NCBI GenBank assembly: GCA_022072025.1
Contig: JAJVIP010000003.1
Coordinates: 1-64,000 of the forward strand
Origin: Elusimicrobiota bacterium
GTDB lineage: Bacteria; Elusimicrobiota; Elusimicrobia; F11
DNA length: 64,000 bases
Reading direction: 5' to 3'
Below the pieces are notes generated by a model, which searched no databases, was not told the DNA's origin, and saw only the letters and a program-made list of their open reading frames with translations. The translations under genes were made by a program, and so were the position numbers. Below, in pieces: positions 7,227-62,435 of this stretch (position 1 is its first letter; each line of letters opens with the position of its first letter).

Positions 7227-9919
7227 TGGACAGACAAATTGCTCTGATCCTAAAGTTTATTGATCAAGCCTCAGCCCCATTACAGGCGGCAGCGGGGGCG
7301 GTTAATAATGCTTTTAAGGGGATGACCTCAGCTACTTCAAGTGCTACTGGATCATTGACTAGTGCGTGGGGAACGGCAGTCGGAAAGATAACTAGTTGGT
7401 TTGGGGAGATGGTTGACAAGGGGAAGTGGGCATCGCTCCTTGTCGGTGGCTATTTAATGAATATAGTCAAAGATCTGATTTCTACTGCTTCCGAGTTTGA
7501 AAAGTTTTCTGTTGCCACGGAATTTTTGACTGGTAGTACCGCAGATGTTACTAAGTTTGCTCAAGCCATTCGTGAAATGGCGGTTGACTCTGTTTTTGGA
7601 CTAGAACAAGTAACTGAACTTGGGAAGAGAATGGTTGGTAATACCAAGGATGTAGATCGCTCCACTGTAGCAATGAAAGCCATGATGGACGCTGTAGCCG
7701 CTACTGGGGGTGGATATTCAGAGTTAGAGGGGGTGGTAAGAGCCTGGATCCAGACAAACTCAAAAGCTAAAGCTTCGTCTGAAGAAATGAATAGACAATT
7801 TTCAAATGCCAACATCCCAGTTTTGCGGGTGTTAGCTGAGAGTATTGTTAATAATGCTGACAATCCCCTCCGCAAATATATCCAAACAGCTGGAGCTACT
7901 GGTGGAGCGAATAAAACCCTCACAAAATCATATGAGACTGCCTCAGATAATATTAAAATATTGGGAGATAAGGTTAAAATAGCCCAACTCAGCCTAGATA
8001 ACTACGAAAAATCAAGCAAAAAAACTGAGGAAGGAGTATTACGCCATAAAGTTGCTCTAGAGTCTGCTCAAAAAGCCCAGGCAAAGGCAAACTCAACCAT
8101 CGCTGAATACACCGCCGCCCAAGCTAAGGCTGGGCAGGCTACAAAAACAACCACTCTGACGGTCGAAGGAGTAATGGCACAACTCCAAGAAATTGGAGAT
8201 CTAAACATCCCTGGTTCAATCGCCGCAGATGCTATTACTAAAGCTCTTAATGAAGCATATGGTGGGGCGAACCAAAGATTAATCCAAACATTTAGCGGAC
8301 AACTCGAAGCCTTTAAAGATCGCATCAAACTAGCAGGACTAGCTTTCCTTGGTCTTGATGAAAACTTTAAAGTCATTGAGGGGTCTGTGTTTCAAAAATT
8401 AACTACATTTTTATCTAATGTTAATAACTGGCTAAAAGAGAATGGAGAGGCTATTGACACATGGGGAAAGAAATTTGGTCAGAGCTTACCACTTGTGTCT
8501 GCCTTTGCAACATTTCTAATCGGAACATTTGCTGGTGCTATTAAAGGAATCCTCGGACCAGCCCTCTTAGTCGGTGCGGCATTCTCAGTTCTTGGTTATG
8601 CTGTGGGGGTACTATTTGATAAACTCAAGGAAGAAACTGGACTTACTGATGAAAAGTTAGTTCCAGCCTACATTGATCTTAACGGACAGCTCCATACCGC
8701 TAATGCTTCCTATAAAGACATGAGTAAGTTTATTGGATCTGCGATGGTTAAACAATCAGATCTGGGTAAAAACATCTCAGATGTAAGAACTGAAACTGAA
8801 AAACAGCATACTGCCCTCAATAATTTAAAAACAGCCTGGGAAGGGGTTAAGTCTGCCCTAGAGGGTTTGGGTGGGGCGTTCTCGGCCTTTGATAAAGCTA
8901 CCACCTCTACTCAAATTCTTAGCAAGTGGTTGACACTAGCCATGTTCCAGTTTGAGCAATCAGTTCTTTGGCTTAGTGCAATGGTATTAAGCATCAGAGC
9001 TCTTGGGGAAGAGATCGGGGCATTCTGGGCAGCGGCGACTGGGGATGATGCGGCGTTTGTGCAACACAAAGCAAATATTGACATTATCAATGGCAAACTT
9101 ACCGAGTTGGAAACTAAATATAAAACTGCTTCTGATAACATCGCAACCACCCTTGCTGGCAACGCTATTACTACTAATACCTGGAAAGATGGGGTGAACG
9201 CATCATTTAATGGTGTCGGTATCAACGCCTCTGAAAATTCAACAAAAATGTCTAGTGGGTTCAATACTGGCATGACTTCCATGGTTACATCTGCCAACAC
9301 AAATATGCCACTCATGTCCTCTTCTGTGGCCACTGGATTTACATCAGCCCAAACCGCCGCGGAAACTTCTTCCAAGGGGATGTATGACTCACTATTTACA
9401 AACTTATCTGCGATGCCACCAATGGCTGAAATCCAATCTAGCTCTATGATGTCTTCATTTAAGGGTGGGATTGAATCTAACAGACCATCTCTTGATAGTA
9501 CGGTGTCAGCAATGATGAAAAGTGTTGATTCTACTCTTGGGAGTGAGGCAAGTAAAGCAAGTGGTCATGGTGGAAGCCTGGTGAGCAACTTTGTTGAGGG
9601 GATAAAGTCTGCCCTTAGAGGACTTGGCGGGATCGCCTCCACTATCGCAGGAAAAATGGGACTCGGAGATCTTAAATTCGAACATGGAGGAATCATCCCA
9701 GGTCCAATTGGTGCTCCAATCCCAGTTATCGCCCACGGGGGAGAAAGAGTTGTTCCTAGATCTGGGGCTGATTCGGGCGGGATGGGCGGAGGAATTGTAA
9801 TCAACTTTAATGGTGGTGTGGTGCTTGACTCTGAGGCTAGAACCCAAGAGCTTGCAGAAAAGATCGGTAGAATGCTTGGAAGACAAAATGAATTAGCTCG
9901 TTATGGAGTAGCTTATTAA
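7226..9919 (+). CDS. tail tape measure protein
   Basis: 897 aa, largely helical and Ala/Gln/Lys-rich, with central hydrophobic segments and a Gly-rich C-terminus. Canonical position after the G/GT chaperone. Confidence 0.85.
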   Translation: MDRQIALILKFIDQASAPLQAAAGAVNNAFKGMTSATSSATGSLTSAWGTAVGKITSWFGEMVDKGKWASLLVGGYLMNIVKDLISTASEFEKFSVATEFLTGSTADVTKFAQAIREMAVDSVFGLEQVTELGKRMVGNTKDVDRSTVAMKAMMDAVAATGGGYSELEGVVRAWIQTNSKAKASSEEMNRQFSNANIPVLRVLAESIVNNADNPLRKYIQTAGATGGANKTLTKSYETASDNIKILGDKVKIAQLSLDNYEKSSKKTEEGVLRHKVALESAQKAQAKANSTIAEYTAAQAKAGQATKTTTLTVEGVMAQLQEIGDLNIPGSIAADAITKALNEAYGGANQRLIQTFSGQLEAFKDRIKLAGLAFLGLDENFKVIEGSVFQKLTTFLSNVNNWLKENGEAIDTWGKKFGQSLPLVSAFATFLIGTFAGAIKGILGPALLVGAAFSVLGYAVGVLFDKLKEETGLTDEKLVPAYIDLNGQLHTANASYKDMSKFIGSAMVKQSDLGKNISDVRTETEKQHTALNNLKTAWEGVKSALEGLGGAFSAFDKATTSTQILSKWLTLAMFQFEQSVLWLSAMVLSIRALGEEIGAFWAAATGDDAAFVQHKANIDIINGKLTELETKYKTASDNIATTLAGNAITTNTWKDGVNASFNGVGINASENSTKMSSGFNTGMTSMVTSANTNMPLMSSSVATGFTSAQTAAETSSKGMYDSLFTNLSAMPPMAEIQSSSMMSSFKGGIESNRPSLDSTVSAMMKSVDSTLGSEASKASGHGGSLVSNFVEGIKSALRGLGGIASTIAGKMGLGDLKFEHGGIIPGPIGAPIPVIAHGGERVVPRSGADSGGMGGGIVINFNGGVVLDSEARTQELAEKIGRMLGRQNELARYGVAY

Positions 9920-17898: not shown

Positions 17899-19323
17899 TC
17901 ATAACTGAACGGCCTCAATGGTATTGATAAGAGCGTTTCTATCTTGCTCTAGTAATTTCATTACATCAAATACTTTATCTGAGAATCCAGCCATTGCATA
18001 TACATTCTGTTGTGGGAATTCTAGAGTTCCATATCCCTGGAGATCAAATGAGTAGATCCGAGGGTTGGCACCAGTTCTCTTTTTGTAGTCAGCAAATGCT
18101 TTCTTTGGATCATTCCCCCACATATTATCCCCCGCCCATCCCTGCATATCAGAGAGAATTATAATGCGATCATATGGTTGGTTAGCTTTAAGGAATGGTG
18201 CAGCAAAGTTTGTTCCACCAGATTCAAAATCAAAGCTCTCTGCGATGCTAGTGAGTGAATCTTGGGTGTTAATAGAAACATATTTTGCGTTGTCAGAGAA
18301 AACAATTACATCGGCATTGTTTTTCTTAACTAAAATACTAGCAAAAAGTGAGGCAATCTGGGCTGGACGACCCTCCATAGATCCAGATTTATCCACAATT
18401 ACCAGAGTATCACCATCAAACACAGGCACATTATCTAGAGACATTTCAGCCGCCTTGGAGAGTATTGAGATAATCTTGCGGGCATCTTTACCAGATTCTT
18501 CCTTAAACTGCTCAATGGCTGTTTGGAATCTGAATGGTAGGACTAGGGATTTCTTTTGTAGATCTTTGTCTAGCAATATCTCCCCCGCTTTATCCAACAA
18601 CTCTGGAGCCTGCAACATAATGTTGCGAAGGTTTCTAAGTAAGGCAAAGTATCCAATCTTTTTAGATTCTATTAGTTCTGTCCAGGCTTCTTTCTTGGCT
18701 TCATCTTTGTCTTCAGCAGAACCAGTGGCACTAAGTTTTGCCTCCCAGGTATCAACGGACTTAAGTTTATCTTCTATTAATTTCTTAAGAGCAACTTTAT
18801 TTTTCTCGGTAGGAGTTGGGTGAAGAAGATTAACAGCATCAACTAGGGAGATCTCGTTCCCCTCCCCACGGTACTTAGCAAGCTGATACTCATCAAACTT
18901 CCCAAAAGCCATCCCCAATCCTCTTTTGAGTGAGTTTGGTACTGGTTTGCTATAGTTTGATATATAGTAACTGAGAATTTCTGTAATATCGTCAACGCGG
19001 TGGACAACTTTATTATAGAAATTTTTAGTCCACTTCTCACCCTTAACTTTCTTAGCGATCTCAGCCGCTACGACATGGGAGATTGATCTCATCCCGAATT
19101 CTTGGCGAGCATAGACAGCTGTTTTAGCGGCAAATGTTGGGCTAATTTGATCAAGAAGTTCTTTTACTTTTTCAAGCCCCTCAGATTCTGAGCGGTAATA
19201 TTGATCCTTAACAAAGGAGGTCAGCACCATGGTGGCGAACTGGTACTCTGGGGTCATGACATAGGCATCCCCACCAGCCAAGTTCACGGTAGTGTTTGTT
19301 TGTTTACTATTAAATTTAGTCAT
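17899..19323 (-). CDS. rsr: Ro60/Rsr-like protein (TROVE domain + vWA domain with MIDAS motif)
   Basis: N-terminal VNLAGGDAYVM...YYRSE resembles the TROVE N-terminus. C-terminal VIVDKSGSMEG (DxSxS MIDAS) plus a vWA-like segment. SD AAGGAGG 5 nt before the ATG. Confidence 0.6.
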   Translation of the reverse strand: MTKFNSKQTNTTVNLAGGDAYVMTPEYQFATMVLTSFVKDQYYRSESEGLEKVKELLDQISPTFAAKTAVYARQEFGMRSISHVVAAEIAKKVKGEKWTKNFYNKVVHRVDDITEILSYYISNYSKPVPNSLKRGLGMAFGKFDEYQLAKYRGEGNEISLVDAVNLLHPTPTEKNKVALKKLIEDKLKSVDTWEAKLSATGSAEDKDEAKKEAWTELIESKKIGYFALLRNLRNIMLQAPELLDKAGEILLDKDLQKKSLVLPFRFQTAIEQFKEESGKDARKIISILSKAAEMSLDNVPVFDGDTLVIVDKSGSMEGRPAQIASLFASILVKKNNADVIVFSDNAKYVSINTQDSLTSIAESFDFESGGTNFAAPFLKANQPYDRIIILSDMQGWAGDNMWGNDPKKAFADYKKRTGANPRIYSFDLQGYGTLEFPQQNVYAMAGFSDKVFDVMKLLEQDRNALINTIEAVQL

Positions 19324-19850
19324 AGATCCTCCTTGTTTTTTATCAAACTTTAAATAATGTGGACGAGAAAGCCGAACCGAGTAAACCAGATATAGCTCTA
19401 GTTCAAGCCTGAATTTAACCTCGTCATAGAGGGGTTTCTATAGTTCAAGTACTCTCCCTATAGAGGCGTTGCCTTCCAGATTAACAAAAACCCTTTAAGC
19501 AACTTACAAGTTTGCCCGAGGGCAAACCAATCGTAACCCTTTCGGGTGCAGAGACTGTTTAAGTCGAAGTAACTCAAATTCTTACTGCGTCCACACTGTT
19601 AAAGTTCAAAATATTGCAGAGAAAATTGATAAGAGTGACAATGCGTTCTAACACTGAACTACTGAGCTTTCGCCCAGACAGGAATCTAACCTGTGGCCTC
19701 ACATTCCAAAAATGAAGTAACTCTAGTCTCACTACTGCAATATGTTAATGTTCAAAATGGTAGAGAAAATTTGCGAGAGACTTATTATCGGCGAAGTAAC
19801 TCTCACTTCACTACTACCAAATAACATTATAACATAACAACATAATGTTG
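19324..19850. ncRNA. 527-nt noncoding leader upstream of rsr with 3 tandem degenerate ~78-nt repeats and several hairpins; candidate Y-RNA-like sRNA array
   Basis: No ORF of 60 aa or more. Repeats start at 19566, 19714 and 19793 (GAAGTAACTC...CACTACTGC...GTTCAAAAT...). Hairpins GTTTGCCCGAGGGCAAAC (19520-19537), ACCCTTTCGGGT and TCTATAG...CTATAGA. The CUCACUACUGC string recalls the 3' strand of the Ro-binding stem of vertebrate hY1 (from memory). Confidence 0.3.
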
Positions 19851-25373: not shown

Positions 25374-26414
25374 CTATTCTCCATGTTTTAACAAGTACTC
25401 TGGATTAATACATTTGAATGACAGGCGACCAAGATCTGGATCTCGCGTCTCTAAAACTGGGCGGATAACGATTCCCTCTGCCCAAACTTCTGGATTGAGC
25501 TTCGACTTACGAGTAGCCAGGGCGACTAGTTCATCTACGGTACTGGGGAGTTTAAACATAGGATCTACCCATGGTACAGACTTTAATCCCAAATCTATTA
25601 AGATGTCTGCTAAGGTGGGGGAACTAACATACTCTCCAGTTTGCATATCATAAACATTATAAAAAAGGATTCTCTGACCCTTAAGTTTAAGCCTATTGGC
25701 TTGGATACCTTCCCCAATTAGTTCTCCCTGGAGTGCCCAGCGGGAATCTTTTAGTTTTTCTTTGAGTCCCAACTCGTTGGCTACCTTCCAAAAACTGTTT
25801 CCCTCAGACTCTAGGAGGTTGATAGAGCGGGAGCAAACATTTAATTCTCCATCCTTCCAGTATATGGTCACAGAGGATCCATCTACCTTTTCTGTGATAT
25901 AGAAAGTATCAGTTTGATATCTTTCTAGAATCTCTGGACAACCCTGAATTCTAGGCTCATCTGTCTTAGGAATAAAGCTGGGGAATAACCCTTTGGCTAC
26001 GCCAGCTAACTGGGCGGGCATTGGGGGTTCATATTTATGTACGCCAAGAATACCCGTGACATCATCTCCCTCTTGAAGAAAATCTCTTCCAAGAGATTGG
26101 TGGATAACTGTAATGGGTAGACATAATCCTTGGCTAATTTGCCCCCGCAAGCGGATAGTTCTAAGACGGATCCCCTCTTCTTCTGCCCCATCGATTAACA
26201 TTTTTTTGGTACCATTTTTCTTTAAGAACTCATATCTAAAGTCATCGGCGGGCAAGAATGAGTCCACCTCATAATACACACATAAATCCCCAGGTTTGAA
26301 CTCACCCTTCTTTACCACTACATGCCACCCTAGAACAGTAGCCACCTCAATGGCATCTGCTCCCTCAATGGGTTTGATGTCTATAATCTTTTGGACACTA
26401 GCTAGTTTTCTCAT
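25374..26414 (-). CDS. ATP-dependent RNA ligase, DraRnl/Rnl5-like (nick-sealing family)
   Basis: N-terminal KLASVQKIIDIKPIEGADAIEVATVLGWHVVVKKGEFKPGD OB-like domain. Nucleotidyltransferase motif I EKVDGSS, motif IV EGIVIR, motif V FKCINPEY. Confidence 0.6.
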   Translation of the reverse strand: MRKLASVQKIIDIKPIEGADAIEVATVLGWHVVVKKGEFKPGDLCVYYEVDSFLPADDFRYEFLKKNGTKKMLIDGAEEEGIRLRTIRLRGQISQGLCLPITVIHQSLGRDFLQEGDDVTGILGVHKYEPPMPAQLAGVAKGLFPSFIPKTDEPRIQGCPEILERYQTDTFYITEKVDGSSVTIYWKDGELNVCSRSINLLESEGNSFWKVANELGLKEKLKDSRWALQGELIGEGIQANRLKLKGQRILFYNVYDMQTGEYVSSPTLADILIDLGLKSVPWVDPMFKLPSTVDELVALATRKSKLNPEVWAEGIVIRPVLETRDPDLGRLSFKCINPEYLLKHGE

Positions 26415-34933: not shown

Positions 34934-35794
34934 CTAGAAATCACCGTAGTCAACTTGTAGACAAGTTAGCCCCAGCGATCTCCACATATCAACCACCTGT
35001 TGGCGATCATCTAAAACAAATAGGACATTATATTTTCCCTTAATCTCAGCGTCATAAATTTCTTTTTTAATAATATTGTCGGTGCGATGATCCCCAGTTT
35101 TTCTCATAAAGAGGGAGATACGATCATCTAAAACAGAATGTTTGGCTAACCAGCGAACTGTTGGTTCACGATCTTTATCCTCTCTTCCAGAAAGATAGAT
35201 CGGGCGGACCCATTGTTTAGCATAATATGTTTTGAGAATATTTATTATTGGTTCGTTTGGCAAATCGTTCTCGCAAGTGGATGCGTCATAAGGATCACGA
35301 CCATTCCCTAGTGCGATGGTCCCATCTAGGTCACAAATGATAACTGTCGCCAGAGCAGGATCGAATGTGGGGCGTTCTACGGCTCTAAATTCTAGTTGAC
35401 GAGCCATCCTTCGGATCACCTTACTACCGACTGAATTTGGGCGGAGCAGATCCCTCTCTATACATGTTTCAACGGGGACATTGGTAAAGTCTTGAGTTTC
35501 AACCTCAGCATTATATTTGGCGGCAATTCTCCACATAGTATTTTTATGTTTACTATGTAGATTTGTATCATCCACAATTATGTCATGACCGCCCTTTAGA
35601 GATTCTTCTACAATAAAATCACGAACTTTCAAAACAAATTCTTCCCGCCCCTTTGAATGTACACCGACATGAAGCATGTCCCGCAAACTATCTTTATTAA
35701 CTCTAACTGTGTTGGGGTTTTGGGTTTGGTACTCTCTCGCCCAAGTTGTTTTACCAGAACCTGGAAGTCCTTTTGTCAATATAATCTTATTCAT
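34934..35794 (-). CDS. pnkp: polynucleotide 5'-kinase / 3'-phosphatase (T4 Pnkp-like)
   Basis: N-terminal P-loop kinase (GLPGSGKTT) and C-terminal HAD phosphatase (ICDLDGTIA, DxDGT motif I). Same domain order as T4 Pnkp. Confidence 0.8.
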   Translation of the reverse strand: MNKIILTKGLPGSGKTTWAREYQTQNPNTVRVNKDSLRDMLHVGVHSKGREEFVLKVRDFIVEESLKGGHDIIVDDTNLHSKHKNTMWRIAAKYNAEVETQDFTNVPVETCIERDLLRPNSVGSKVIRRMARQLEFRAVERPTFDPALATVIICDLDGTIALGNGRDPYDASTCENDLPNEPIINILKTYYAKQWVRPIYLSGREDKDREPTVRWLAKHSVLDDRISLFMRKTGDHRTDNIIKKEIYDAEIKGKYNVLFVLDDRQQVVDMWRSLGLTCLQVDYGDF

Positions 35795-36676: not shown

Positions 36677-37747
36677 TCATGCTACCGCCTCAGATTGTTG
36701 TTTAAATGGTCGCTCTGCCACGGGGCGAAGCTTCTTCCATATCATATGTGCATAGGGACGCTTATCAAGCATAGAGAATAAGATTGGGGCATACTCTCCA
36801 TCTTTCATAAACTCCATAGCTAGTGTCTTGCGATCTTTCACTCCACTACCAGTAGTGGTTATAAAAAGTGTTTTAGCTATTTGATCAATGGTATTATATT
36901 GGAGAATAAGGTTGTCGGCCGTATCTTTTACCCAGTGGTAAAACTCTTCTGGGACTCTTTCCATCAACTCTCCGAGGTCTTGCCCGTTACGAAGGAGATC
37001 CCAAATAGTCTTTTTATTCACCCCAGTTAATAGTCTGTGTAGGCGTACATATTCGTCAAACTTAAACTTAGTCCTCATCCCCGATTGGAAGCGGATAACA
37101 AACCCTTCACTGTCATTTTTTTGGATTGCCTTAATCTTTTCTAGATCATTTAACCCATCATATCTGCGTACTATTTTCATTTTCCCCGAAAACGCCATCT
37201 GTAGTGTCTCATATGGTACTTCTACACCATCCCTAGTGTTAAAGGCTGTGAGAAGATATAGATCTCTATCTAATCCATAATTAACTACAATCCTATTTTC
37301 TGGATAGATAATTTCGAACAAGTATGTGTATTCTGGGTTAAATTCTACTTGAGAATATTTTTCCTGAAGCATTTTATTCGCCTCAATAGCTTGGTCACTC
37401 TCAAAAGATCCCCGCGTGGCGATAAAGGGTTTCCCCCCAACAAAGTACATAATCCCAAGCGATCCATCCATCTTCTCAAATACTTCGAATGGCTCTGTAA
37501 GTGGTAATTTGGGTAAACCGTTATTTTCTTGATGTTCAGATAAGTTCCAGAACTTCTGGAATGGCCTGGCAACAACCTGGTTGGAAGCGTCCATAATAAG
37601 ACCCCGACAGGTAATTGTCTCGGGAGTCCAAACTTTATCAAATTGAGCTTTTTGGGAATAGTTATAAATCCACAATTCTTCGGTGGGGTGTTTTGTTTTA
37701 TCTATATACTTCTGGTCTATCAACTCTTGTAGTCGAGCGAGATCCAT
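36677..37747 (-). CDS. ATP-dependent RNA ligase (Rnl1/RnlA-like)
   Basis: Motif I EKMDGSLG (KxDG), motif IV EGFVIR, motif V KFKFDEY. 356 aa. Confidence 0.6.
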   Translation of the reverse strand: MDLARLQELIDQKYIDKTKHPTEELWIYNYSQKAQFDKVWTPETITCRGLIMDASNQVVARPFQKFWNLSEHQENNGLPKLPLTEPFEVFEKMDGSLGIMYFVGGKPFIATRGSFESDQAIEANKMLQEKYSQVEFNPEYTYLFEIIYPENRIVVNYGLDRDLYLLTAFNTRDGVEVPYETLQMAFSGKMKIVRRYDGLNDLEKIKAIQKNDSEGFVIRFQSGMRTKFKFDEYVRLHRLLTGVNKKTIWDLLRNGQDLGELMERVPEEFYHWVKDTADNLILQYNTIDQIAKTLFITTTGSGVKDRKTLAMEFMKDGEYAPILFSMLDKRPYAHMIWKKLRPVAERPFKQQSEAVA

Positions 37748-39473: not shown

Positions 39474-39794
39474 TTAACTATTAGCTATTTCCAATAGCAC
39501 ATCGGCGTGACACGGCTTGTCTAGGGGACACCAACAGGCCAGGTTGAATCCCCTTAAATCTCTTTTCGCCGCCTGAGAGCGGGTACATGATGTGTCATAT
39601 GCTTGGTCGTGTACTCCTGACATAAGCCATTCTTTATATTTAGCTATCGCCCCTCCCCTACCCAAAACCATAATTCCATTAATTCTATCTCCTTCTTTAT
39701 ATGGGTTTCCCCAGAAGGTTGGTCTTCCTACATAAATTGTATTTGGTGGCATTTTCCACCCCTTAGTGCGTTTACGCTGTACTCGAATCGGCAT
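39474..39794 (-). CDS. DUF4326-like protein
   Basis: YVGRPTFWGNPY...KYKEWL...LRGFNLACWCPLDKPCHADVLLE matches the DUF4326 pattern (GNPf...CwC...CHadvL). Confidence 0.4.
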   Translation of the reverse strand: MPIRVQRKRTKGWKMPPNTIYVGRPTFWGNPYKEGDRINGIMVLGRGGAIAKYKEWLMSGVHDQAYDTSCTRSQAAKRDLRGFNLACWCPLDKPCHADVLLEIANS

Positions 39795-40578
39795 GGATCA
39801 TCTCCATAACTTCATATAATAATTTATTTATTTTAATTCGATTATTTGTATCTGGGATTGTAGAAATTTGATACTCATATTCAAATTTTTGGAAGAGTTG
39901 TTCGGCGAGAGCTTTAACCTGATCTAAACTATATTCTCCGAGCTTAATATCTATTAATTCTTGTCTATCTTCAGTCCGATACACAATCGGAGCACCATCT
40001 CGGAGAAATTCTATCCCCATTTTGAGTAGTCTAACAAGATGGGAAGCATTTTTACTATCATATCCGATTAGATCTACCATTTTTTTTCTCTTTTCGCCCA
40101 TATATCCCCGATATGGGTTAGATTCATTCATTCTTTTGAGCTGAGCCCTAGCATATCCCCCAAAACAGTTGTAAACTAGGTTTTTAGAAACAAAAAGGTG
40201 GCGGTTATCAATCACATACTGCCAAACGGGGGAGATATTAATATAATCCTCTTTCCGCATATAAAGTGTATTGATTACATTGGGGTTCATCCCGCTCAAA
40301 AGCACAAACATTTTGTGGAGCTCATATCCCACCTCATCAATCGCATCTTGTTTAACTTCGTATGTTTCTTTGGCATGGGCATACCCCTCTAGGGTATAGT
40401 AATATTGTTTGGGATAAGCGAATACGGAAATGGTGTCTATGTCATCTGTCCCCCATTTTTCCTCTGGTGGAACATATAAGTTGTGAGCGTGAGATCCCCG
40501 ATATGCAAGCATAAGGGGTATTTTCTCAAACATTTTATTATAAATGCTTTCTGGTTTGCCCAATCTTTCCCTGACCAT
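39772..40578 (-). CDS. Pol-beta superfamily nucleotidyltransferase
   Basis: YRGSHAHNLYVPPEEKWGTDDIDTISV fits the hG[GS]x(9-13)Dh[DE]h signature. 268 aa. Confidence 0.4.
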   Translation of the reverse strand: MVRERLGKPESIYNKMFEKIPLMLAYRGSHAHNLYVPPEEKWGTDDIDTISVFAYPKQYYYTLEGYAHAKETYEVKQDAIDEVGYELHKMFVLLSGMNPNVINTLYMRKEDYINISPVWQYVIDNRHLFVSKNLVYNCFGGYARAQLKRMNESNPYRGYMGEKRKKMVDLIGYDSKNASHLVRLLKMGIEFLRDGAPIVYRTEDRQELIDIKLGEYSLDQVKALAEQLFQKFEYEYQISTIPDTNNRIKINKLLYEVMEMIHADSSTA

Positions 40579-52394: not shown

Positions 52395-52760
52395 ATGTTA
52401 TTAAGTTTATTAGATTCTTATTTAAGTATGAGTAAGTATAAACTCCAGATGAATCCAAAGAAGACTAAATATGCCGATATTGTTCTAGCTAAGATAATGG
52501 GCAGACCTATTATCCCCAAGGCTGATGATGTTCTAGTTTTACCAGTAAGTGAATATGATTGGTTTGAGTGTAGCATTGGAAATATTGTCGAACATAGTAA
52601 CGAGGGAGTTGTTAAGCGGGCTACTATTTACATTGGTGAAATACTCGGGGGGACAAGTAATTTATGGAGCGATCAATATGACTCTGATGCAATCATGGCG
52701 ATTAACGGACACAAGATTAAGTCCAATAAAGATGCCTGGGATACAATTATCCCCTTTTAA
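52395..52760 (+). CDS. hypothetical protein
   Basis: 121 aa. Confidence 0.3.
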   Translation: MLLSLLDSYLSMSKYKLQMNPKKTKYADIVLAKIMGRPIIPKADDVLVLPVSEYDWFECSIGNIVEHSNEGVVKRATIYIGEILGGTSNLWSDQYDSDAIMAINGHKIKSNKDAWDTIIPF

Positions 52761-52838
52761 TTTTTAAGTAAGTATGGTATAATATGTTTCCAAGCATTGA
52801 ACCCGTGCTCTAGGGGATGAATAACCCAGGGTTCTCTA

Positions 52839-52909
52839 GGCCAGCTAGTTCAGTGGTAGAACATCGGTGTTACATACCGACTATGAGGGTTCGATTCCTT
52901 CGCAGGCCA
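52839..52909 (+). tRNA. tRNA-Val (anticodon UAC)
   Basis: Manual cloverleaf: acceptor GGCCAGC/GCAGGCC (one A-A mismatch), D-arm GUUC-AGUGGUA-GAAC, anticodon stem UCGGU/ACCGA with loop GUUACAU, T-arm GAGGG-UUCGAUU-CCUUC. Confidence 0.55.
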
Positions 52910-53335
52910 CATCGGATACTTAGGAGAGGGTCTTACTGGCCGTAAGCACTTAACCTCTAAGTTGATTAAGCTAACCCGCGTGGAGGCGGTCCATCCCAAC
53001 TGTTTGGACGCTCCCTTGCTAGACTAGGAAGCATGAGCGGTGGAAGGTGTTAAGACCGAAATTGCTAATCAGCTACCTTCGCCTGAGTATCGGATCGCTT
53101 TAGGTCGGGGGGAAACTAGACTGAGTTTTCTCGAGTCTGATATAGCCCCCCGCCCATTTTTCCGAGCTCAGTGGGTGAAAGACACTCGTATGCTAGAGGG
53201 CTATGGAATGTAAGTGGGAATCCAGAAGAGTCCCCTTTTCCTGAAGTGTGGTGCTGGCCGTCGCCTTCCGAGCTAACACCCTTGCTCCTATGAGGAACGC
53301 AGGGTAATGGTAAGTTCTCTAGCACACCCGCACTA
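52910..53335 (+). other. 426-nt noncoding, highly structured spacer inside the tRNA array (unknown RNA element)
   Basis: No credible ORF. Hairpins CCGC-GUGGAG-GCGG and GUCCA...UGGAC. A long composite hairpin GGUCGGGGGG-AAACU-[AGACUGAG-UUUU-CUCGAGUCU]-GAUAUAG-CCCCCCGCC sits near 53115-53170. Confidence 0.3.
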
Positions 53336-53414
53336 GGCGATATGGTGAAATGGTAGACACGCCTGCCTTAAGAGCAGGTCCGCAAGGGTAAAGGTCCGAG
53401 TCCTTTTATCGCCA
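53336..53414 (+). tRNA. tRNA-Leu (anticodon UAA), type II
   Basis: Acceptor GGCGAUA/UAUCGCC, anticodon stem CCUGC/GCAGG with loop CUUAAGA, long variable arm, T-arm AAAGG-UCCGAGU-CCUUU, discriminator A. Confidence 0.65.
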
Positions 53415-53418
53415 CCTC

Positions 53419-53492
53419 GGGCGACTACCCCAATTGGTAGAGGGAACGGTTTTAGAAACCGTGTAGTCAGAGTTCGAATCTCTGGTTGCCCA
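53419..53492 (+). tRNA. tRNA with anticodon UAG (Leu by code) but short class-I variable arm
   Basis: Acceptor GGGCGAC/GUUGCCC (G5-U68 wobble), anticodon stem ACGGU/ACCGU with loop UUUAGAA, 5-nt variable loop, T-arm CAGAG-UUCGAAU-CUCUG. Confidence 0.5.
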
Positions 53493-53497
53493 CATTT

Positions 53498-53568
53498 AGA
53501 TCTCTAGCTCAATGGTAGAGCTGTCGGCTTATACCCGACTGACAGAGGTTCGATTCCTTTGAGATCTA
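53498..53568 (+). tRNA. tRNA-Ile (anticodon UAU), A1-U72
   Basis: Acceptor AGAUCUC/GAGAUCU, D-arm GCUC-AAUGGUA-GAGC, anticodon stem GUCGG/CCGAC with loop CUUAUAC, T-arm AGAGG-UUCGAUU-CCUUU. Confidence 0.55.
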
Positions 53569-53572
53569 CAGA

Positions 53573-53644
53573 GTTCCTATAGTTCAATGGATAGAATAAT
53601 TCCCTTCTAAGGAATAGATTCGGGTTCAAGTCCTGGTGGGAACA
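53573..53644 (+). tRNA. tRNA-Arg (anticodon UCU)
   Basis: Acceptor GUUCCUA/UGGGAAC, anticodon stem AUUCC/GGAAU with loop CUUCUAA, T-loop UUCAAGU. Confidence 0.55.
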
Positions 53645-53680
53645 CTTGTTTCAGTAAAGCAAGTATGTCATAATATATTT

Positions 53681-54091
53681 ATGACAAATTCAAATGAATA
53701 TATGAGGGGATATCTTAAAAAGAGATATCATTCTCGCCGAGAAGGGGCTGTCAAACTTCTGGGGGGATGTTGTTCAAAATGTGGATCTCTAAAAAAATTA
53801 GAACTTGATCATAAAGACTATACAAAAAAATCTTTTGATATTTCTAAGTTGTGGAATATATCTTATATAAAATATAATGAGGAAATAAAAAAATGTCAAT
53901 TATTATGTAAATCTTGTCATATTAAAAAAACAAGAGAAGATTTAGGACAAGAAAACGCAAGAGAAACCCATGGAACCTTATCCGCATGGAGATATTGTAA
54001 GTGTCAATTGTGCCGAGAGGCATTTAATAAATATATGAGAGAATATAAAAGCAGGGTTCATAGCAAAGTGGCTACTGCACTCGCCTCTTAA
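53681..54091 (+). CDS. HNH endonuclease inserted in the tRNA array
   Basis: ELDHKDYTKKSFDISKLWN...LLCKSCHIKKT HNH core with CCSKCG zinc knuckle. Very AT-rich. The track ORF 53636..54091 overlaps the upstream tRNA-Arg and the downstream tRNA-Lys by about 38 nt. Confidence 0.65.
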   Translation: MTNSNEYMRGYLKKRYHSRREGAVKLLGGCCSKCGSLKKLELDHKDYTKKSFDISKLWNISYIKYNEEIKKCQLLCKSCHIKKTREDLGQENARETHGTLSAWRYCKCQLCREAFNKYMREYKSRVHSKVATALAS

Positions 54092-60243: not shown

Positions 60244-60297
60244 TTACTACGAGAGAGTATTTTATATATTTATATATAAAATACTCTCTCGTAGTAA
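60244..60297. repeat. 54-bp near-perfect palindrome (25-bp arms, 4-nt centre)
   Basis: TTACTACGAGAGAGTATTTTATATA-ttta-TATATAAAATACTCTCTCGTAGTAA. Immediately preceded by a second palindrome TCCTAATATTAGGA (60228-60241). Lies at the convergence of + genes and the - tRNA array. Confidence 0.6.
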
Positions 60298-62048: not shown

Positions 62049-62433
62049 TCGGGGGCGACTTGCTTTGACAGGTTTCTCTCAGAATAATCTGCATGTCGGC
62101 TTTGACCAAGAGCCGTTAAACAGGGTTAAAAAACAAATGCTAAATTTTTGAAGCATATAGCAAATAAAGTTACCGCTATCCTTGACGGGATATGGGACGC
62201 TTTATCTGTTCCTTCAGTTACAGCTTTCGCTTAACTGACGGCGTTCGACATGAACTTGCTTGTGGGAAAGTGTCGGGCGAGAATACACACAAGATCAGCT
62301 TTTGATTGAGCATAATATCAATCACAACCACAGGCGTAGTGGTTAAAACGCTGGCGTCCTCAACGGATGAAAAACATGTAGACGGTTATTTTGTGAAGGT
62401 CTGGACGGGATGTCACTCATCCCCGCCTCCACC
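62049..62433 (+). ncRNA. ssrA: tmRNA (SsrA), one-piece, about 385 nt
   Basis: 5' GGGGGCGACUUGCUUUGACAGG... resembles E. coli GGGGCUGAUUCUGGAUUCGACGGG. 3' end GGAC-GGGAU-GUCACUC-AUCCC-CGCCUCC-A-CC forms a T-arm plus acceptor that pairs with the 5' GGGGGCG, including the G3-U70 Ala identity pair. Internal CUGCAUGUCGG is like the E. coli pseudoknot-1 GGUGCAUGCCGAGG. Candidate tag ORF GCA AAU AAA ... GCU UUC GCU UAA (ANKVTAILDGIWDALSVPSVTAFA) at about 62160-62234. Confidence 0.65.
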
Positions 62434-62435
62434 CC

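Follow-up and report, generated by a model that had tools for sequence, protein, structure and literature searches.

What, if anything, is encoded by some 426 nt of DNA lying inside a phage tRNA operon? The spacer that raises this question occupies positions 52911-53335 on the + strand and separates tRNA-Val(UAC) from tRNA-Leu(UAA). An initial sequence-only reading had described it as noncoding, structured and carried on the tRNA transcript; the coordinates and flanking genes given there were correct, as both ARAGORN and Rfam place tRNA-Val and tRNA-Leu at the spacer ends. The element is a phage or prophage, with genes for tape measure, head protease, major head and tail proteins. The window, by which we mean the whole 64,000-nt stretch of DNA that was analysed, carries 21 tRNA genes in two arrays together with a tmRNA, and five more tRNAs lie past its end, making more than 25 in all. 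As a non-tRNA, non-coding segment that shares the strand of the phage tRNAs among which it lies, the spacer sits where a passenger RNA of a tRNA operon would be expected.

The spacer within its presumed transcription unit

Upstream of the tRNAs, an ORF at 52395-52760 (stop codon 52758-52760) is overlapped at its 3' end by a terminator-like hairpin, GGGATACAATTATCCC followed by CTTTTAATTT (52738..52753, +), which would mark the end of the preceding transcription unit. Next comes a promoter-like box, AAGTAAGTATGGTATAATATGTTT, containing an extended -10 (TGnTATAAT) at 52766..52789 (+). This box belongs to a repeat family whose copies are 83% identical, and it is the presumed start of an operon composed of tRNA-Val, the spacer and further tRNAs, its promoter role being suggested by sequence and position. 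tRNA-Val(UAC) (anticodon tac; 52839..52910, +) was reported by ARAGORN and Rfam and has no encoded CCA; its 3' processing site would correspond to the 5' end of a spacer RNA. On the other side of the spacer, tRNA-Leu(UAA) (anticodon taa; 53336..53416, +), again reported by ARAGORN and Rfam, opens a run of four tRNAs, Leu-UAA, Leu-UAG, Ile-UAU and Arg-UCU, which are spaced 2-4 nt apart (53336..53645, +) and complete the presumed operon. Directly after tRNA-Arg, a second copy of the promoter-like box (TGnCATAAT; 53657..53680, +) starts the next block, made of an HNH endonuclease gene and further tRNAs. The promoter-like boxes on either side, the upstream terminator and the shared strand of the tRNAs make the five tRNAs and the spacer look like a single unit, which suggests that tRNA-Val, the spacer and the four downstream tRNAs would be transcribed together.

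The 24-nt box with its extended -10 precedes successive tRNA blocks (52766-52789 and 53657-53680) and is a candidate promoter motif of this phage. At the far side of the window, a 54-nt near-perfect palindrome (60244-60297; 96% self-complementary) immediately follows the 3' side of the minus-strand tRNA array. Both of its strands match microRNA-hairpin models, and it may be a bidirectional terminator.

Coding potential and known RNA classes

The sole ORF of at least 60 aa in the spacer is, as the sequence-only reading had stated, an antisense Gly/Ser-rich ORF of 69 aa (53116..53325). A shorter ORF of 57 aa with a GTG start (53040..53213, +) has an NCBI entry as hypothetical protein MCG3204020.1 from an Elusimicrobia MAG. 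It is called by gene finders in two assemblies and is preceded, nine bases upstream, by the SD-like sequence AGGAAG. Its codon score of 0.056 lies inside the range of the phage's small genes and below the long-gene mean of 0.28, a low value that is not decisive. Among 1.84 billion representative proteins, the ORF had no relative, the search returning only the protein itself and one chance match to a repeat, and no PHROG match was found. Furthermore, the ORF spans only 174 of the 426 nt of the spacer and passes through the G/C clamp described below. We consider that it is probably an over-call and that, on the evidence of its sequence, the spacer is non-coding, with no credible, conserved or family-assignable gene. 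MCG3204020.1 itself is encoded by a contig of 103,985 nt from an 'Elusimicrobia bacterium' MAG, which indicates that a phage-like contig of ~104 kb has been binned as bacterial.

No known RNA family accounted for the spacer either. Rfam (4227 families) was searched at E <= 10 with the spacer alone (425 nt), with an 801-nt segment and with the whole window (the latter also at gathering scores), and zero matches were obtained in the spacer. Among the families searched were group I introns, RNase P, tmRNA, 6S, SRP, GOLLD, ROOL, OLE, T-box and those self-cleaving ribozymes that Rfam includes. The suggestions of RNase P, 6S, tmRNA or OLE RNA made from the sequence alone therefore had no match at E <= 10, and the covariance models of GOLLD, ROOL and OLE were likewise without a match in the spacer at this threshold. 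A group I intron had also been suggested on the strength of the P7-like motif GAAACUAGAC. This idea was not upheld: neither Intron_gpI nor any of its subtypes, whose models represent a conserved P3-P9 core with P4/P7 pairing, matched the 425 nt searched alone at E <= 10, and the tRNAs on either side are intact, with no credible split tRNA reported by ARAGORN in intron mode. An intron-bearing tRNA reaching across the whole spacer was similarly rejected, as ARAGORN run with introns and lowered thresholds returned spurious calls only.

Several other classes were examined individually. For RNase P RNA (bacterial A/B and archaeal), the P4 motifs GGAAAGUCC / ACAGAA..GGCUUA were absent on reading the sequence, in addition to the lack of an Rfam match. 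The phage's own tmRNA is located elsewhere (62051-62434, +), where Rfam gives a full-length model match of 74.6 bits that ARAGORN does not report; the spacer yielded only spurious low-threshold ARAGORN calls. For Y RNA, the only YrlA-like match of the window lies beside the Ro60 gene (19610-19741, -) and none lies in the spacer. A descriptor scan for theta-type, HDV-like tRNA-trailer ribozymes found no such fold at the 3' end of tRNA-Val, and Rfam gave no HDV-type match. The descriptor, a simple one of our own, made one loose match at 53215, which is away from the tRNA end and lacks the catalytic C. A T-box or riboswitch leader had no Rfam match, and although domain D2 (see below) is terminator-like, no alternative pairing was identified. 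Lastly, 17 tRNAs of the phage were used to build a covariance model. With filters switched off, nothing in the spacer scored above 2.7 bits on the + strand, whereas the real tRNAs reached 46-72 bits, so that a pseudo-tRNA origin is not supported. Internal duplication in the spacer was not significant, and no paralogue of the spacer was found in the window or in the ~10 kb past its end.

Fold, composition and relatives of the spacer

Folding the spacer gives a predicted minimum free energy (MFE) of -155.2 kcal/mol; relative to dinucleotide-shuffled sequences, z lies between -2.8 and -3.1. In this single-sequence prediction, the MFE structure divides the spacer into three self-contained closed domains, D1, D2 and D3, which tile it from its first base to 4 nt short of tRNA-Leu. 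The domains are retained when positions 52791-53500 are folded with the flanks included, with pair probabilities of ~0.5-0.99. D1 (186 nt; 52911..53096, +) consists of a 19-bp interrupted closing stem (52911-52931 / 53075-53095) around a multi-branched core. Its G+C content is 0.51, its pair probabilities are 0.6-0.97 and its z is -3.0 on the + strand and -2.0 on the - strand. D3 (168 nt; 53168..53335, +) is closed by two stems (53171-53177 / 53325-53331 and 53191-53202 / 53313-53324) that lead into a four-way junction with three hairpins; its z is -2.4 on the + strand and -2.0 on the - strand, and it stops 4 nt ahead of the RNase P site of tRNA-Leu.

The central domain D2 (53097..53167, +) is made of a G/C clamp (53103-53112 / 53146-53155) around a hairpin (53117-53139) and ends with a U5 tract at 53157-53161. 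Multiple perfect hairpins had been noted at the outset, among them a 10-bp G/C clamp enclosing the nested hairpin UAGACUGAG-UUUU-CUCGAGUCUG. The hairpins are indeed present, but not all are perfect: the clamp does enclose the nested hairpin, yet only 9 of its 10 positions are paired and its perfect core is 7 bp long (CGGGGGG/CCCCCCG, pair probability 0.99), and the nested hairpin carries one bulged G. The U5 tract begins 1-4 nt past the G/C stem, and the compound loop of 33 nt is atypical for an intrinsic terminator. D2 was not flagged by a terminator scan, whose limit of 3-8 nt this loop exceeds. It may be a leaky intrinsic terminator or a structural hinge. No alternative anti-terminator pairing to D2 was evident by eye, and a scan found no promoter-like site downstream of it. 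No GNRA tetraloop can be read in the terminal loops of the MFE structure, which likewise showed neither a pseudoknot nor another recognisable tertiary motif.

The reverse complement of the whole spacer folds equally well, so the signal is strand-symmetric at this level, while D1 and D3 taken individually are more stable on the + strand. Among 50 segments of equal size from this contig, whose z averages -0.56 (sd 1.44), the spacer ranks sixth. The predicted thermodynamic signal is thus only moderately above chance and is not exceptional for this contig.

The compositional anomaly is stronger than the thermodynamic one. The G+C content of the spacer is 0.518 versus 0.415 for the window, an excess of +0.103 that brings it to the level of the tRNA blocks. 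As a comparison set, we took all inter-tRNA gaps of at least 300 nt (n = 145) in 120 unrelated phage tRNA-array loci, which were retrieved from IMG/VR phages via a tRNA-Leu D-arm 17-mer. The G+C excess of these gaps has a mean of -0.025 (sd 0.044) and a maximum of +0.098, and the spacer lies above all of them. Another long (417 nt), G+C-rich (+0.096) and ORF-poor gap was observed between tRNA-Pro and tRNA-Gln of a different phage (L093, 7282-7698). The same locus holds, at 7774-7973, the 5' half of a tRNA-Leu (GGGGTATGGTGAAATGGTAGACACGCCGA), after which the sequence becomes A+T-rich; this may be an interrupted or intron-containing tRNA-Leu.

The search for homologues identified the spacer DNA, 100% identical, in the Logan assemblies SRR10609169 (64,473 nt) and SRR10609165 (103,872 nt). 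As the only other copy is identical, the structural evidence comes from one sequence. Searches of PLSDB and of 50,697 phage records with blastn or megablast gave only tRNA or chance matches, and an exact 19-mer of the spacer was absent from IMG/VR. Eleven degenerate 24-nt probes, designed on translated stop-free frames of the spacer, found no copy in IMG/VR, JGI metagenomes or GTDB genomes, the single probe match (L023) being the start of an unrelated Verrucomicrobiota gene. A six-frame concatenated query of the spacer against 5.8 billion proteins gave no relative among the matches listed. Over the 120 phage tRNA-array loci, nhmmer, blastn and single-sequence covariance models of D1 and D3 were also without a match.

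The phage itself proved similarly isolated. The flanking proteins (an upstream ORFan, a DnaD-like protein and a helicase) have no relatives in IMG/VR, the major capsid protein has none in cultured phages, and the relatives of the cytidylyltransferase belong to bacterial polysaccharide loci or to phage contigs carrying no more than one tRNA gene. The nearest relative found is a phage in SRR15237813, whose cytidylyltransferase is 85% identical at the aa level and whose tRNAs are 87% identical at the nt level; the 1,579-nt contig of this phage opens at tRNA-Arg, ~300 nt short of the expected spacer site. In the window, an HNH endonuclease gene (phrog_4234; 53636-54091, +) stands between tRNA-Arg(UCU) and tRNA-Lys. 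On the contig of this relative (L026, 1-160) these two tRNAs are 3 nt apart without an HNH gene, which identifies the latter as a lineage-specific insertion in the phage of the window.

The tRNA-array loci also contained a family of ~205-nt, ORF-less RNAs that are G+C-rich compared with their genomes and located between tRNA genes on the tRNA strand of at least nine IMG/VR phage contigs (L126 7009-7217, L137 1433-1641, L102 2284-2492 (-), L099 2713-2930, L069 11016-11219 (-), L079 4576-4779, L110 1805-2008, L080 3163-3366 and L106 10538-10725). Compensatory changes occur in 21 of its 42 predicted pairs, and GGACAG and CUCAG are among its invariant motifs. At gathering score, none of the best 150 of 157 Rfam matches fell on the family in L126 or L137, and the L126 member had none in Rfam at E <= 10 other than a chance microRNA match. 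This family appears to be an undescribed structured RNA. It is not homologous to the spacer: the family HMM misses the spacer, and the single-sequence covariance models of the spacer miss the family.

Elsewhere in the window, a sub-threshold match to YrlA (RF02553; 32.3 bits, E = 0.004) at 19610-19741 (-) lies directly upstream of a Ro60/TROVE + vWA gene (17899-19323, -), and together they look like a phage-encoded Ro60 / Y RNA pair. A 425-nt window starting at 19761 has z = -3.3. An RNA-repair set (25374-26414, 34934-35794, 36677-37747 and 39772-40578, all on the - strand) comprises two RNA ligases (phrog_968, and phrog_562 of the T4 RnlA type), a polynucleotide kinase (phrog_505) and a nucleotidyltransferase (phrog_388). 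Overall, the RNA-related gene load of this phage (Ro60, YrlA-like RNA, tmRNA, two ligases, polynucleotide kinase and CCA-type nucleotidyltransferase) is unusually dense.

A proposed passenger RNA, its rivals and known systems

As the best explanation, we tentatively propose (with a probability of about 40%) that the spacer encodes a passenger structured RNA freed by tRNA processing, of the same kind as GOLLD, ROOL and the T4 stable RNAs. The description of the spacer as noncoding, structured and carried on the tRNA transcript fits all the tests above, the intron and named-family ideas that accompanied it being unsupported, and a processed sRNA or novel structured RNA is a plausible reading of the predicted fold. 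We infer transcription, the cleavage sites, the stability of the product, termination at D2 and any function in trans, as follows. Transcription would begin at the extended -10 box (52766-52789) and proceed through tRNA-Val, the spacer and the four further tRNAs. The nucleases that mature the tRNAs would then release the spacer, RNase Z or E cutting after 52909/52910 and RNase P at 53335/53336. With both of its ends within closing helices, the freed RNA could persist either whole or as separate D1 and D3. D2, with its clamped hairpin and U5 tract, would probably end a fraction of the transcripts, thereby setting the ratio of tRNA-Val plus D1 to the downstream tRNAs. During infection, the RNA would work in trans, and its most plausible role would be that of a scaffold or decoy that binds proteins and is linked to the unusually rich RNA-repair/translation toolkit of the phage.

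The two serious rivals are a neutral remnant and a spacer that acts only in cis. As a remnant, the spacer would be what is left of decayed tRNA genes, of an eroded mobile element or of captured G+C-richer host DNA, and its fold would be ordinary for 52% G+C. The lack of a homologue in any collection searched, the rank of its z (only sixth of 50) and the equally good fold of the reverse strand are all consistent with this, as are tRNA-like snippets such as the D-arm-like AGCTCAGTGGGTGAA at 53165-53179 and the adjoining homing HNH gene, whose absence from the array of the relative points to an array in flux. What tells against a remnant is that the phage-tRNA covariance model finds next to nothing on the + strand, that neither internal duplication nor a paralogue in the window was detected, and that a G+C excess above all 145 comparable gaps is unexpected for old junk in a phage of 41.5% G+C. 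A remnant old enough to have lost its tRNA signal should also have drifted towards A+T, and 426 bp of useless DNA would rarely be retained by a phage genome. A tRNA-like G+C content with no tRNA signal left, in a compact genome of 41.5% G+C, thus favours a selected RNA over junk, and we regard the remnant as somewhat less likely than the passenger RNA. If the spacer instead worked in cis, D2 would serve as an attenuator or intrinsic terminator, and D1 and D3 would contribute their long closing stems as RNase III or E processing stalks. Together these would tune the four downstream tRNAs, and the excised RNA would be without function. This would suit the G/C-rich stem of D2 with U5 following within 1-4 nt, the near-continuous 19-bp duplex that closes D1 and the position of the spacer, which follows the first tRNA of one unit and precedes the remaining four. 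However, 426 nt far exceeds what a terminator and a processing stem need, and the missing anti-terminator pairing, the lack of any T-box or riboswitch family match and the absence of a promoter-like restart site downstream of D2 all lower the standing of a purely cis-acting element, which we judge improbable.

Two further explanations are far less probable than either of these. A small protein gene at 53040..53213 would account for the calls in two assemblies, the SD-like sequence and a codon score within the small-gene range, but hardly for a 57-aa product matched only by itself and a chance repeat, without a PHROG, and confined to 174 nt that run through the G/C clamp; it can be given very little credence. 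Much the same applies to a known class too divergent for Rfam, be it a degenerate group I intron, an RNase P-like or 6S RNA, a relative of GOLLD or ROOL, or a theta ribozyme. A length of 426 nt and the tRNA context would suit RNase P RNA or GOLLD/ROOL, and short look-alikes, GGGUGAAAG as well as GAUAUAG near ACUAGAC, can be read in the spacer. Against such a class stand the zero Rfam matches in the spacer at E <= 10, whether it is searched alone, within the 801-nt segment or within the whole window, together with the missing P4-type motifs of RNase P, intron-bearing tRNA and HDV-like fold at the 3' end of tRNA-Val.

The passenger RNA therefore remains our preferred reading, and the conserved ~205-nt family in other arrays indicates that phage tRNA arrays do hide uncatalogued structured RNAs. 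A bolder version, which we hold to be a little less probable still than the cis-acting spacer, is that the spacer founds a new class of large phage RNA with one or two closed domains of ~170-190 nt, released by tRNA processing and working with the RNA-repair/translation module. A possible role of such an RNA would be that of a decoy or scaffold for host tRNA-targeting defence nucleases or for tRNA-processing enzymes.

Known systems provide several points of comparison. GOLLD and ROOL, large RNAs whose function is unknown, occur in phages and prophages, often in or beside tRNA islands with which they may be co-transcribed (Weinberg et al. 2017, PMC5737381; Kretsch et al. 2025, PMC12286853). The spacer resembles them in being phage-borne, non-coding, hundreds of nt long and situated by or in a tRNA island. 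It differs from them in length (426 nt versus ~581 and >800 nt) and matches neither model at E <= 10; unlike them, it has no predicted pseudoknots or definable conserved core, and it is one sequence and not a widespread family. A second parallel is offered by the stable RNAs of the T4 tRNA cluster (species 1 and 2, rnaC/rnaD), which are non-tRNA species cut from the tRNA precursor by tRNA-processing nucleases. They measure ~120-140 nt and, to our knowledge, their function is still unknown. Like them, the spacer would yield a non-tRNA RNA from within a phage tRNA operon, presumably by processing; it is longer, and has no sequence similarity to any cultured phage record searched. Spacers of tRNA precursors are also a source of sRNAs, as exemplified by the 3'ETS-leuZ sponge of E. 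coli. In other phages, theta HDV-like ribozymes sit at tRNA 3' ends, in the tRNA trailers (PMC10879173). Both 3'ETS-leuZ and the theta ribozymes are functional RNAs of ~50-70 nt derived from the spacer or trailer directly 3' of a tRNA, the position that the spacer takes behind tRNA-Val, although the latter tRNA has no HDV-like fold at its 3' end. If real, the RNA proposed here would join the small phage tRNA-island set formed by GOLLD, ROOL and T4 species 1/2 as one more large non-coding RNA, and would be a new, so far single-member example of such an RNA in a phage tRNA operon. Coming from a lineage without cultured relatives and with dense RNA-repair and quality-control genes, it could help to reveal what passenger RNAs do. 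Given the ~205-nt family, gaps of tRNA arrays with an excess of G+C are a productive place in which to look for further structured RNAs that have no Rfam family.
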